Of a stretch of DNA of 64,000 nucleotides, positions 47,120-49,375 are shown one piece after another. Positions within the stretch are counted from its first letter, which is position 1, and each line of letters starts with the position of its first letter. This DNA is from Corallococcus sp. RDP092CA (GTDB lineage: Bacteria > Myxococcota > Myxococcia > Myxococcales > Myxococcaceae). The notes below the pieces were generated by a model. That model was not told the origin of the DNA. It saw only the letters and a list, made by a program, of their open reading frames with translations, and did not search any database. The position numbers were made by a program, and so were the translations under genes. The stretch spans positions 160,643-224,642 of the forward strand of contig NZ_JAYESI010000001.1 in the NCBI RefSeq assembly GCF_041903675.1, written 5' to 3'.

Positions 47120-47195
47120 GCCGACATAGCTCAGTTGGTAGAGCAACTGATTCGTAATCAGTAGGTCTCCGGTTCAAATCCGGATGTCGGCTCCA
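47120..47195 (+). tRNA. tRNA-Thr (anticodon CGU)
   Basis: Acceptor stem GCCGACA/TGTCGGC. D-loop AGCTCAGTTGGTAGAGC. Anticodon stem ACTGA/TCAGT with loop TTCGTAA. T-arm TCCGGTTCAAATCCGGA. Encoded CCA. Confidence 0.9.
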
Positions 47196-47202
47196 AGAAG
47201 TC

Positions 47203-47240
47203 CAAGGGCTTGGGTGGCTTCGGTCGCCCAAGCCCTTTTT
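47203..47240 (+). terminator. Rho-independent terminator after tRNA-Thr
   Basis: caagggcttgggtggcttcggtcgcccaagccc followed by ttttt. Confidence 0.6.
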
Positions 47241-47475
47241 CTATGTTGCCTACGAGGCTCCGCGCCGTTTCGAGTGCCCGCGCGACCGGGCCGAGGAACT
47301 GGTGCATCAAGGAGCCTGACGTCCTCCACTCCCCCCGTCCAATCGTGGCGCGAACAGCGACCGGTCGCTCGTGCCGGTGCCGAGCGGGAGGACCGCGCAA
47401 GCTTCGCTGGGATTGTCGGACCCTGAAGTCAGGATGCCGCGCCTCCTGATTCCAGGAAGGTACCTTGGGGGGAGT

Positions 47476-48774
47476 ATGAGATTGATTGCAGTGGCGTCTT
47501 TGCTGCTTCTGTTGGCGGGGTGCGCGACCCCCCGCGTTGTCCACATCGACGTTGGGAATGGGCAGCGAGTCGTCCATGAGTCGGTGGAGGTTGACCCAGT
47601 TCAGGTGGGTGAGGACGAGTTCAAGGCGGCCCTCACGCAGCTCCTCCTCGACATGCGAATGGACGTTGCCTTCCGCGAGACGGATGCAGCCGACCGGCGA
47701 GGGTGGGTGAGGTCCCGGTCGTTGCTCGCATCCTCGAAGGGGCTCGCGGATTCGGGGGCTGGGGTGTCTCCGGAGTCCCTGTATTCGCGCATCTGCCCCG
47801 AGGGCGACGAGTGCTTGACCCTGGTGGACGGCACGGGGCTGCCCTTCTCGCGCAAGGACCGAACGTTGATGGCCCTGTCGTTCGCGCTGGATACGGTCTG
47901 GGGGAGCGTCGAGGCCGAGATCGGCAAGCTGCTGAACCCGGTGGTGCTCAAGGCCATGGTGACCTCCGCGGCGCTGACCGTGCTCCTCACGATGGCGCTG
48001 CCCGAGCCTGTCACGAAGGTCCTCGCCGTGGCGTTGACGGCGGCGATGGTGGCCTACCTGGGGGTGGTGCCTGTCTGGGAGATGGGACGGGGCTTCGTGC
48101 GGCTGTGGGACAACGCGGAGAGGGCAACGAGCGTCCTCGAGTTGCAGGACATCGGTCATCGCTTCGGGAAGGTGCTGGGGACGAACGGCACGCGTGTCCT
48201 GGTGCTGCTGGTCACGGCGGCCCTGGGTGGGAGGAACGCGATGGCGGCCCAGGGGCCCCGGCTCCCGGGCTTCCCCCAGGCTGTGTCCCGAGGACAAGCC
48301 GAGGCGGGCTTCCAACTCGGAGCGGCGATGAATGGCGGCGTGTCGTCCATCGCGCTGCCCGCTGCTGGAGTGCTGAACGTGACGCTGGCTCCGGGCGCGA
48401 CCGCTGTCGTCGCGATGTACTCGAATGGTATTCAGGGTGACGCTGAAGGTCCGGTTCACCACATCTGTACGAACAAGAACCCGGTTTCGGCTGTATCAGG
48501 CGGTCCCTGGACACCGTTGTGCGAAGAGGTCTTTGCCCGAGCCGGGATGTCCCTGGAAGATGTCTCCAACAAAGTCCGACTCGGGGGACACCAGGGACCT
48601 CATCCACGCGAATACCACGAGGCGGTATTGCGGCGCTTGAATGACGCGCTAGGAAAATGCAGGAGCATGGACGCGTGTCGGAGTCGCCTGGTCGAAGAGC
48701 TTGCCAGAATCGCAGAGGAGCTTCTGACGCCAGGTTCAGCGCTTCGGCGCCTGATTGTGCCGAAAGAGGGCTAG
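47476..48774 (+). CDS. Lipoprotein polymorphic-toxin candidate with C-terminal AHH/HNH-type nuclease domain (SitA-like)
   Basis: MRLIAVASLLLLLAGC lipobox after GGGGGGAG RBS. Two hydrophobic helices mid-protein. C-terminus VHHICTNKN...AGMSLEDVSNKVRLGGHQGPHPREYHEAVLRRL resembles the AHH nuclease signature. GC drops at the C-terminal domain. Confidence 0.55.
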   Translation: MRLIAVASLLLLLAGCATPRVVHIDVGNGQRVVHESVEVDPVQVGEDEFKAALTQLLLDMRMDVAFRETDAADRRGWVRSRSLLASSKGLADSGAGVSPESLYSRICPEGDECLTLVDGTGLPFSRKDRTLMALSFALDTVWGSVEAEIGKLLNPVVLKAMVTSAALTVLLTMALPEPVTKVLAVALTAAMVAYLGVVPVWEMGRGFVRLWDNAERATSVLELQDIGHRFGKVLGTNGTRVLVLLVTAALGGRNAMAAQGPRLPGFPQAVSRGQAEAGFQLGAAMNGGVSSIALPAAGVLNVTLAPGATAVVAMYSNGIQGDAEGPVHHICTNKNPVSAVSGGPWTPLCEEVFARAGMSLEDVSNKVRLGGHQGPHPREYHEAVLRRLNDALGKCRSMDACRSRLVEELARIAEELLTPGSALRRLIVPKEG

Positions 48775-48777
48775 TGG

Positions 48778-49368
48778 ATGTTCAATGGAAATTACTATGA
48801 TGTTGGAATTGCGGATGTCCCTCAGTGGGTGCTGGAGTTGCCTGTTCTTGCATCTGGCGACGAGCTAGACGACCCGTGGATGTTTGGGGACGGAAGGCGC
48901 CTGCCAGAGCCAGGACTCCTCAAGAGCAGGCCGTTCCGTGACGGGCCACAACGGTCCTTCTCTGTGGCGAATTCAGGGAGAACGCCTATCGCAGACGAGC
49001 AGGCTGCGAATGTCTTTCGCAAGCTGGCGCCTGCTGATGTTCAGGTGTTCCCCATCGAAGTCGCAGGAGCGAGGAAGCCACTCTTTGTCATCAACGCAGC
49101 CAGGTGCTTCAAATGCGTTGATGAGACAAACTCCAAGGAGGTGCAGATCTATCCTCCAGAGGGTGTCGCACCGGAGAGAGTCGGAACGTACCGTGCCATT
49201 TACGGACTGCGTATCGACCCTTCCAAATCAGAGGGTGCCCGGGTCTTTCGGATACAAGGCTATTCTTCTGCGTTCATCGTCTCTGAGGACATCAAGACCG
49301 CCCTCGAAGCAGTCGGGAACCTGGGCGTTTCGTTCGAGCGTGTGACCGGACCGCACGAGCCTCACTGA
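48778..49368 (+). CDS. Candidate cognate immunity protein
   Basis: ATG lies 4 nt after the toxin stop. Lowest-GC part of the window. 196 aa. No signal peptide. Confidence 0.4.
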   Translation: MFNGNYYDVGIADVPQWVLELPVLASGDELDDPWMFGDGRRLPEPGLLKSRPFRDGPQRSFSVANSGRTPIADEQAANVFRKLAPADVQVFPIEVAGARKPLFVINAARCFKCVDETNSKEVQIYPPEGVAPERVGTYRAIYGLRIDPSKSEGARVFRIQGYSSAFIVSEDIKTALEAVGNLGVSFERVTGPHEPH

Positions 49369-49375
49369 CGGTCGG

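Follow-up and report, generated by a model that had tools for sequence, protein, structure and literature searches.

A probable sitAI5 toxin/immunity cassette beside tRNA-Thr(CGU) in Corallococcus sp. RDP092CA

Gene content and base composition of the islet

A two-gene islet of reduced GC content lies directly downstream of tRNA-Thr(CGU) in Corallococcus sp. RDP092CA, within a 64-kb window that comprises the whole stretch of DNA analysed. The features of the locus, with putative functions where these are predicted, are as follows.

45271-46890, minus strand: glutamate dehydrogenase gene (gdh), divergent neighbour of tRNA-Thr on the left flank
47120-47195, plus strand: tRNA-Thr, anticodon CGU (ARAGORN; Rfam RF00005, 75.2 bits)
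about 47204-47247, plus strand: intrinsic-terminator-like hairpin, 15-bp stem followed by a T-run (terminator scan and reading of the sequence)
47393-49369, plus strand: putative sitAI5 cassette as a unit of DNA homology, comprising 5' leader, sitA5 and sitI (blastn against related loci)
47476-48774, plus strand, stop codon included: sitA5, predicted 432-aa lipoprotein toxin (ORF; RefSeq identity)
47476-47523, plus strand: type II signal peptide with lipobox L-A-G-C, Cys16 and Ala at +2 (MRLIAVASLLLLLAGC followed by ATPR)
47500-48237, plus strand: SitA5 escort domain, aa 9-254 (NCBIfam NF050093 SitA5_escort)
48421-48723, plus strand: AHH (HNH/EndoVII-superfamily) nuclease toxin domain, aa 316-416 (Pfam PF14412)
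48778-49368, plus strand: sitI, 196-aa Imm11-family immunity protein (ORF; Pfam PF07791)
49376-49615, minus strand: C-terminal remnant of a TauE/SafE sulfite-exporter gene on the right flank, outside the cassette (Pfam PF01925)

ARAGORN and Rfam agree that the tRNA is the only one within the window, and with the hairpin and T-run, placed at 47204-47237 by the terminator scan, it gives the tRNA-plus-terminator arrangement that an earlier sequence-only reading had placed ahead of the islet. That reading also counted exactly two genes, as does the ORF list, in which 47476-48774 and 48778-49368 are the only plausible genes of the islet. Comparison with the empty site of C. carmarthensis CA043D (214 bp versus 2218 bp) delimits the inserted segment to 47201-49418, essentially the extent first proposed, and blastn homology of the islet to related loci begins at 47391-47420 and stops at 49358-49376. 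A sigma-70 promoter scan of 46850-49750 found none, although such a scan says little in a high-GC myxobacterium.

The GC content of the window averages 71.6%, compared with 62.5% over 47120-49370 and 57.7% over 48400-49370, and this windowed profile bears out the claim that GC drops after tRNA-Thr and is lowest towards the end of the islet. At scales of 300, 600, 970 and 2250 bp the lowest-GC position of the window falls in the islet region, and at 970 bp the trough lies about 4.3 sd under the window mean. Third-position GC is 85% in the N-terminal part of the first gene, 62% in its toxin part and 61% in the second gene, against 91-97% in the flanking housekeeping genes. Close SitA5-AHH cassettes from Myxococcus, Corallococcus and Cystobacter have a GC content of 55-61% in the toxin/immunity region and 64-68% in the escort domain. 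Judged from these copies, the low toxin/immunity GC is a family trait and not a mark of recent foreign arrival in RDP092CA, because the same pattern, high in the escort domain and low in toxin and immunity gene, is common to every cassette copy across several genera. The conserved composition break inside sitA fits the published modular model, in which the toxin/immunity halves and the escort domain have different histories. Presence of the islet at identical composition in all related genomes had been named as a refuting point; low GC is indeed common to all cassette copies, yet the islet itself is absent or different in some genomes.

The SitA5 toxin

The first ORF spans 47371/47476-48774. 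Its true start is the ATG at 47476, which is preceded by a Shine-Dalgarno sequence (GGGGGGAG) and yields 432 aa, in agreement with homologues of 429-434 aa and with the RefSeq protein; the product is 100% identical to the RefSeq entry 'AHH domain-containing protein [Corallococcus sp. RDP092CA]'. The N-terminus, MRLIAVASLLLLLAGC, ends in the lipobox cysteine, Cys16, which is invariant in 56 homologues, and hydrophobic helices occur at about aa 155-200 and aa 239-252. The protein was thus correctly described as a lipoprotein with an LAGC lipobox and internal hydrophobic helices, the latter lying inside the escort domain. It is presumably sorted to the outer membrane, as the residue at +2 is Ala instead of Lys (the M. 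xanthus sorting rule).

The N-terminal module had been suggested to be an undescribed delivery-domain family. It is instead a SitA5 escort domain, matching NF050093 over profile positions 2-261 of 262 (E 4.7e-85) with 285.3 bits, where the curated cut-off is 160 bits. The resemblance to SitA/SitI noted from sequence is upheld.

The C-terminal domain had been read as an AHH nuclease, and the profile search agrees: PF14412 is matched over profile positions 8-111 of 111 (E 3.3e-20) with 72.6 bits, where the gathering score is 22.3 bits, and the conserved histidines are aligned. The VHH...AGMSLEDVSNKVRLGGHQGPHPREYHEAVLRRL motif quoted in the sequence-only reading is present in SitA5, and the first residue of the H328-H329 motif (48457-48462) is Val (VHH) rather than Ala. 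Residues H328, H329, N365, H372, H376, Y380 and H381 are invariant in alignments of 112 and of 56 homologues. The AHH domain is predicted to be a metal-dependent DNase. The AF2 model of full-length SitA5 has a mean pLDDT of 52.5; the escort domain, at less than 50, is unreliable, and aa 320-430 reach 76-93. Foldseek of this model against the PDB gave a best E of only 0.7, and searching the PDB by sequence with the toxin domain gave zero matches at E<=1; neither route yielded a relative of solved structure for the toxin, whose fold would be of the ββα-Me type. With the toxin domain as sole query, a word-indexed search yielded nothing but short fragments from myxobacteria and is informative for Myxococcota alone.

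The SitI immunity protein

The sitI ATG starts at the fourth nucleotide past the sitA TAG stop, and a Shine-Dalgarno-like sequence (AAGAGGG) sits within the end of sitA; translational coupling of the two genes is probable. The SitI sequence stands unchanged (100% identity) in RefSeq as 'imm11 family protein [Corallococcus sp. RDP092CA]' and scores 29.7 bits against Imm11 (PF07791; gathering score 22.1 bits). Its AF2 model (pLDDT 89.5, pTM 0.87) has a sole significant PDB match by Foldseek, 6a4c/MXAN_0049 (E 8.9e-7, probability 1.00, TM 0.54-0.59), with about 14% identity in the structural alignment. SitI is, on this model, predicted to be an Imm11-fold protein like MXAN_0049. Profile score and model match both favour the downstream gene as the immunity partner, the role initially assigned to it, and the sitA-sitI gene pair is seen in all related cassettes.

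Homologues

At least 120 homologues were found at 73-100% identity, nearly all of them full-length, in Corallococcus, Myxococcus, Stigmatella, Cystobacter, Pyxidicoccus and Hyalangium. One listed homologue already carries the name 'SitA5 family polymorphic toxin'. Mean identity is 81% in the escort domain (111 homologues), 67% in the toxin and about 50-55% in SitI; relative to other family members the toxin domain is about 57-87% identical and SitI about 50-86%. This gradient, escort over toxin over SitI, is typical of polymorphic toxins.

Variability of the tRNA-Thr site

The cassette occupies a hypervariable site that is bordered by tRNA-Thr(CGU) on one side and by a cluster of sulfur-metabolism genes on the other. 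The gdh-tRNA-Thr junction is kept in loci of Myxococcaceae and Archangiaceae, and the tRNA forms the conserved left anchor of the variable site. Comparison of the tRNA-Thr locus confirms that the islet varies among related genomes: C. carmarthensis has the empty site, and in other Corallococcus genomes the site is filled by different SitA5 cassettes or by unrelated cargo. In the closest relatives the same cassette is found at the same site. The cassette unit also occurs in other genomes between different neighbours, and in M. xanthus CP017169 (L081) the homology covers 47393-49369 at 82.8% with other genes as flanks. SitA5 genes lie within 9 kb of the gdh/tRNA-Thr(CGU) junction in 16 of about 43 loci that have it, and represent at least three divergent escort-domain lineages.

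Several of these features recall a classical tRNA-integrated genomic island, recently acquired from a lower-GC donor on an integrase-bearing mobile element. The islet adjoins the tRNA 3' end, has the lowest GC of the window and varies in presence among relatives, and Archangium violaceum (L032) has, about 7 kb downstream, a partial copy of the tRNA-Thr 3' end that brackets a SitA(AHH)/Imm11 pair. However, neither of the two islet genes is an integrase or recombinase, or any other mobility gene, by ORF list, Pfam and NCBIfam; a search for the tRNA 3' end (34 nt, up to 3 mismatches) found no second copy anywhere in the window; and no direct or inverted (IS-like) repeats flank the islet. The low GC is shared with close cassette copies, and the closest copies, in M. 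xanthus and the 93%-identical relative, occupy the same site, which suggests long residence or allelic exchange. An island of this kind is improbable here and was rejected, as att-like repeat, IS-like inverted repeat and integrase were all not found. A Pfam scan of the Archangium island bracketed by the partial tRNA copy gave no integrase match.

The right flank shows a loss of its own. An 849-bp deletion (junction near 49620) has cut TauE down to the remnant, and at the right-flank position two other loci (L081 and L083) have a complete TauE of 264 aa together with a rhodanese gene. This eroding neighbourhood, and a frameshifted SitA5 copy in Cystobacter fuscus NCWS, would fit a pair that has decayed, or that persists as a purely intracellular toxin-antitoxin-like addiction remnant and no longer kills between cells. 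In RDP092CA, however, both ORFs are full length and intact, all family-invariant residues are kept, the lipobox Cys and catalytic His among them, and the Shine-Dalgarno sequences and gene coupling are retained; we regard a remnant as scarcely credible.

The cassette has probably arrived, and is probably swapped, via homologous recombination and not by an integrase, an explanation drawn solely from the absence of mobility hallmarks. More tentatively, the gdh/tRNA-Thr(CGU) junction could be a conserved, integrase-free SitA5 'landing pad' in Myxococcaceae and Archangiaceae, at which cassettes or toxin/immunity halves are exchanged by homologous recombination. The proposed route of exchange would be through the conserved flanks and conserved escort-domain DNA.

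The site downstream of tRNA-Thr(CGU) recurs in several genera as the home of different SitA5 cassettes with no recognisable mobility genes.

Comparison with known systems and predicted mechanism

Six SitA families that travel by outer-membrane exchange (OME) have been published, SitA5 among them. The SitA5/SitI5 family of myxobacterial OME toxins was reportedly described by Vassallo and Wall in 2019 (cited in PMC8546572). The family definition used here draws on PMC8546572, PMC10433427 and the NCBIfam model. It is the escort domain that defines each SitA family, and escort and toxin modules are swappable among SitA proteins (PMC8546572). Two M. fulvus alleles were tested, SitA5Mf1 (HNH domain) and SitA5Mf2 (AHH domain); the latter (SitA5-AHH) was toxic via OME, with resistance arising from an exbB1 mutation (PMC8546572).

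The RDP092CA locus shares with SitA5/SitI5 the lipobox, the SitA5 escort domain, a modular C-terminal nuclease, an immunity gene directly downstream, a myxobacterial host and the lack of sitB, and with SitA5Mf2 the AHH toxin domain. Unlike the tested pairs, it comes from Corallococcus and is known here from sequence. The lack of sitB had been noted as a departure from SitA/SitI. The absence is real, as no ORF lies between the tRNA (47195) and sitA (47476), but it is not an anomaly and does not argue against SitA5 membership, since only some SitA families or loci have a sitB alongside and the SitA5 constructs tested were sitAI5 (PMC8546572). The locus is very probably a sitAI5 cassette, and as such a polymorphic toxin/immunity pair with which Corallococcus sp. 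RDP092CA would discriminate kin.

The SitA1/2 and SitA3 (sitBAI) cassettes on Mx-alpha follow the delivery logic proposed for it, with a lipoprotein toxin that passes by OME and acts as a cytoplasmic nuclease, and an immunity gene downstream (PMC5562445). They differ in their escort domains, usually have sitB upstream and are carried by prophage-like Mx-alpha elements, whereas the RDP092CA cassette has neither sitB nor mobile-element genes. Colicin/CDI-type toxins are likewise built from an N-terminal delivery/translocation module, an exchangeable C-terminal nuclease and a cognate immunity gene, and their import exploits an ExbB/Tol-type energy system (PMC8546572). Delivery in these systems begins when a secreted protein or a two-partner-secretion filament binds its receptor, whereas SitA5 delivery begins with membrane fusion between kin-recognising cells.

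The MXAN_0050/MXAN_0049 pair of M. xanthus DK1622 (PDB 6a4c) has the same AHH toxin and Imm11 immunity families and a role in kin discrimination, and is an experimentally demonstrated AHH DNase with its immunity protein (PMC12077131). At other M. xanthus loci the same type of AHH/Imm11 module travels by type VI secretion (T6SS) with PAAR (PMC12077131), and therefore the toxin domain by itself leaves the delivery route unspecified. The Pfam types, and a SitI fold that matches MXAN_0049, whose partner toxin uses T6SS with a PAAR protein, would accord with a type VI effector in RDP092CA instead of OME cargo. However, MXAN_0050/MXAN_0049 has no lipobox or escort domain, and the identity between SitI and MXAN_0049 is low. 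The two-gene islet has no adjacent PAAR, VgrG or Hcp gene and the protein no PAAR match, and the lipoprotein signal peptide and SitA5 escort domain (285 bits) belong to OME cargo rather than to T6SS effectors. With a lipobox and escort domain and without PAAR, a T6SS effector was rejected as highly improbable.

What has been published on homologues leads us to infer, for the sitAI5 cassette, that the toxin is delivered by OME, is imported in an ExbB-dependent manner, acts as a DNase and is neutralised by SitI. SitA5 would be made as a lipoprotein. On contact with a myxobacterium of compatible TraA/TraB receptor, transient outer-membrane fusion would occur and SitA5 would pass to the recipient together with other lipoproteins, by analogy with the family; traAB alleles are reported for Corallococcus (PMC6372800). 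In the recipient the escort domain would carry the C-terminal domain over the periplasm and inner membrane, and import of the tested SitA5 alleles needs ExbB1 (MXAN_1448) and, in part, MXAN_0057. Once in the cytoplasm, the AHH (HNH/EndoVII) domain would degrade DNA. Carriers of the co-translated Imm11 protein SitI would be protected because, it is proposed, SitI binds the toxin, while non-kin and cells losing the cassette would be killed; the pair may therefore double as an addiction module.

Significance

The SitA5 family is already described and experimentally tested, and this locus is a real but ordinary, already known, member. It adds one SitA5-AHH/Imm11 allele in Corallococcus and leaves understanding of the system unchanged. 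Which myxobacterial strains are socially compatible is determined by their sitAI cassettes, and each cassette therefore adds one bar to a strain's 'self-identity barcode'. If the landing pad downstream of tRNA-Thr(CGU) is real, one chromosomal site would be a predictable, typable part of that barcode in myxobacteria.

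The sitAI5 gene pair

The islet is an ordinary locus, a SitA5-AHH/Imm11 cassette for kin discrimination of a kind catalogued before, and its site by tRNA-Thr is variable. It contains only two credible genes, listed here with their domains and neighbouring features.

47120-47195 (+): tRNA-Thr(CGU), the single tRNA in the 64-kb window (ARAGORN)
47204-47237: hairpin with a 15-bp stem, then a T-run
47476-48774 (+): gene 1 (sitA5), start ATG 47476, GGGGGGAG Shine-Dalgarno just 5'; 432-aa product
aa 9-254 of the gene 1 product: SitA5 escort domain (ED), NF050093 (NCBIfam; E 4.7e-85, 285 bits against a curated cut-off of 160, profile nearly complete)
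C-terminus of the gene 1 product: AHH nuclease domain, PF14412 (Pfam; E 3.3e-20, 72.6 bits against a cut-off of 22.3)
48778-49368 (+): gene 2 (sitI), 196 aa; ATG begins at the 4th nt after the gene 1 TAG
49376-49703 (-): contains a 79-aa ORF, C-terminal remnant of TauE/SafE (PF01925), junction ~49620, from comparison with related loci L083 and L081
50523-51437: two small membrane proteins, Sulf_transp/YeeE type and DUF6691, just past the MBL-fold gene

An Rfam scan of the window gave no match besides tRNA-Thr. The sitA5 start is preferred because of its Shine-Dalgarno and because the product length agrees with all homologues and the RefSeq protein. The product begins MRLIAVASLLLLLAGC and is 100% identical to 'AHH domain-containing protein [Corallococcus sp. 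RDP092CA]'. It has 328 database matches, the best 120 of which are 73-100% identical, nearly all full length, and come from Corallococcus, Myxococcus, Stigmatella, Cystobacter, Pyxidicoccus and Hyalangium, often several per genome; one homologue already carries the name 'SitA5 family polymorphic toxin'. Alignments of 112 and of 56 homologues show no variation at lipobox Cys16, H328, H329, N365, H372, H376, Y380 or H381. The pattern is the HH...N...H...H signature that an AHH-clade member should have; here the motif opens with Val. These residues and the PF14412 match uphold the lipoprotein with an AHH-family nuclease C-terminus that had been proposed from sequence alone. A T6SS effector is a very improbable alternative identity for the toxin, as PAAR is absent while both a lipobox and an escort domain are present. 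That the pair is a decayed remnant is likewise very improbable, since both ORFs are intact and all invariant residues are kept. Sequence searches found no relative of the toxin domain with a solved structure, and a fold search with the full-length SitA5 AF2 model, unreliable over the ED, was empty.

The AAGAGGG for sitI lies within the 3' end of sitA5. SitI matches Imm11 (PF07791, 29.7 bits against 22.1) and is 100% identical to 'imm11 family protein [Corallococcus sp. RDP092CA]'. Its AlphaFold model, built with 59 homologues, is confident (pLDDT 89.5, pTM 0.87) and has exactly one significant PDB match, 6a4c (E 8.9e-7, probability 1.00, TM 0.54-0.59). That entry is a solution structure of MXAN_0049, which experiments have shown to be the immunity protein for the AHH DNase MXAN_0050 (PMC12077131). 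The family match, the coupling and the modelled fold agree with the coupled immunity gene claimed earlier.

Relation to published SitA families

SitA lipoprotein toxins form six families, each set by its own N-terminal escort domain, and toxin domains are modular and exchangeable in the SitA1/2, SitA3 and SitA5 families (PMC8546572). SitA5Mf2, a SitA5 allele with an AHH nuclease, and another SitA5 allele with an HNH nuclease are active on expression in M. xanthus, and target mutations in exbB1 (MXAN_1448) and MXAN_0057 give resistance that tracks the SitA5 escort domain, not the toxin (PMC8546572). sitB accompanies only some sit loci, and SitA5 constructs are written sitAI5 (PMC8546572). Genomes carry 15 to >80 sitAI loci. 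Corallococcus traAB alleles have been reported (PMC6372800).

The sequence-only reading had noted a likeness to SitA, which the NF050093 match confirms, and had regarded the N-terminal module as unassignable and possibly an undescribed delivery domain. That novelty is refuted because the published families include SitA5, whose escort domain this module is; nor is the missing sitB an added oddity, sitB being optional.

Base composition

The drop in GC noted after tRNA-Thr is real and is deepest where first placed: the window mean is 71.6%, compared with 62.5% over 47120-49370 and 57.7% over 48400-49370. Whether measured over 300, 600, 970 or 2250 bp, the GC minimum of the window always falls inside the islet region, and at 970 bp it is ~4.3 sd under the window mean. 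Third-position GC is 85% in the N-terminal two-thirds of sitA5, 62% in its C-terminal part and 61% in sitI, compared with 97% in the flanking glutamate dehydrogenase gene (gdh) and 91% in the flanking MBL-fold gene. Every close SitA5-AHH copy measured (Myxococcus, Corallococcus, Cystobacter) has the same split (ED 64-68%, toxin 55-61%, SitI 55-60%), and in the two divergent Archangium cassettes the gradient is weaker (ED 69-70%, toxin 61-64%, SitI 64-65%). Since it is present in each close copy, the split is a property of the cassette family and therefore no sign of recent foreign arrival in RDP092CA. It agrees with the modularity that has been published for the toxin/immunity half.

A variable site next to tRNA-Thr

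Eighty related loci were fetched, anchored on the adjacent gdh. The gdh/tRNA-Thr junction is kept through Myxococcaceae and Archangiaceae, and the content 3' of the tRNA is hypervariable. In Corallococcus carmarthensis CA043D (L003) homology ends at 47200 and restarts at 49419, with 214 bp between compared with 2218 bp in the window; L003 is an empty site and defines the insert. SitA5 proteins with an ED only 31-34% identical lie directly after the same tRNA in C. coralloides KYC2213, Corallococcus sp. CA053C, C. sicarius and a MAG. Of these, the KYC2213 and CA053C proteins were scanned with NCBIfam; they still match NF050093, at 331-353 bits, and Pfam assigns nothing to their C-termini. Close SitA5-AHH/Imm11 cassettes occur at Myxococcus, Cystobacter and MAG loci (identity to the window: ED 76-82%, toxin 61-67%, SitI 50-55%), and other loci have unrelated cargo after tRNA-Thr. 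Overall, a SitA5 gene lies no more than 9 kb from the junction in 16 of the ~43 loci that have it. The islet varies among related genomes.

The closest relatives have the same cassette in the same place. L083, a metagenomic contig (SitA 90% identical), is collinear with 44495-49620 at 93% identity. In L081 (M. xanthus CP017169; SitA 83% identical) gdh and tRNA-Thr are followed by two extra genes, then by sitA5-AHH and Imm11, then by another two extra genes and, last, by TauE, rhodanese and the MBL-fold gene. The DNA homology unit shared with close loci spans 47393-49369, and similarity to several loci is interrupted at ~48606-49197 (toxin C-terminal half and SitI N-terminal two-thirds), presumably a co-diversifying toxin/SitI interface.

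A classical integrase-borne island is an improbable origin. The islet has no integrase, the tRNA 3' end was found only once even with 3 mismatches allowed, no direct or inverted repeats flank the islet, and its GC pattern is a cassette-family trait.

Several other loci have features of their own. In L032 (Archangium violaceum Cb vi76) the 3' 46 nt of tRNA-Thr are partially copied ~7 kb downstream of the intact tRNA (1678-1723 and 8634-8709); the copies resemble an attL/attR pair and bracket an island with a SitA-like AHH lipoprotein and Imm11, in whose ORFs Pfam found no integrase and left an 803-aa ORF without a match. At the KYC2213 site (L001), downstream of the divergent SitA5, a low-GC (58-62%) 979-aa ORF at 3658-6597 (-) has a C-terminal adenosine-deaminase domain (PF00962, E 2e-10) and is possibly a defence-type deaminase; a DUF2019 protein ORF at 6925-7281 (-), overlapping the end of the sitA5 gene, is a candidate immunity protein. 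The cargo ~3.6-8.7 kb downstream of tRNA-Thr in C. interemptor AB047A (L002) is not a sitAI cassette; going by N-terminal sequences only, its ORFs resemble phage tail sheath/tail tube proteins, suggesting a contractile-injection-system-like cluster. In Cystobacter fuscus NCWS (L040) SitA5-AHH lies near tRNA-Thr at 3756-4639, where tblastn splits the match into two segments that overlap and the ORF for the lipoprotein stops after 286 aa; this copy is probably a frameshifted pseudogene. The match in C. fuscus Cbf 10 (L055) is one continuous segment.

The right flank

Compared with L083 (93% identical) and L081, the window lacks 849 bp encoding the TauE N-terminal ~185 aa and the entire 108-aa rhodanese gene, both usually located between the sitAI cassette and the MBL-fold (persulfide-dioxygenase-like) gene. 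The TauE remnant, the rhodanese deleted here, the MBL-fold gene and the Sulf_transp/YeeE and DUF6691 genes make up a conserved sulfur-handling cluster that anchors the variable site on its right. To the right of the deletion junction, L083 5973-6447 is 100% identical to 49619-50093 over 475 bp, and the left 5.1 kb is only 93.2% identical; the step may mark a recombination boundary or stem from chimeric assembly of the metagenome.

Predicted pathway and use of the site

With its domains identified, catalytic residues intact, genes coupled, SitI fold modelled and locus variable, the locus very probably follows the published SitA5 pathway, the best-supported model. From homologues we infer every functional step: Cys16 would be lipidated and SitA5 sorted to the outer membrane, transferred during TraA/TraB-dependent outer-membrane exchange and imported via its escort domain in an ExbB-dependent manner, where the AHH domain would cut DNA and SitI would neutralise the toxin in kin.

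The only mildly new point is that the tRNA-Thr site repeatedly houses diverse SitA5 cassettes across genera, integrase-free. That it is a real recombinational landing pad for them is a tentative proposal, which we consider rather doubtful.
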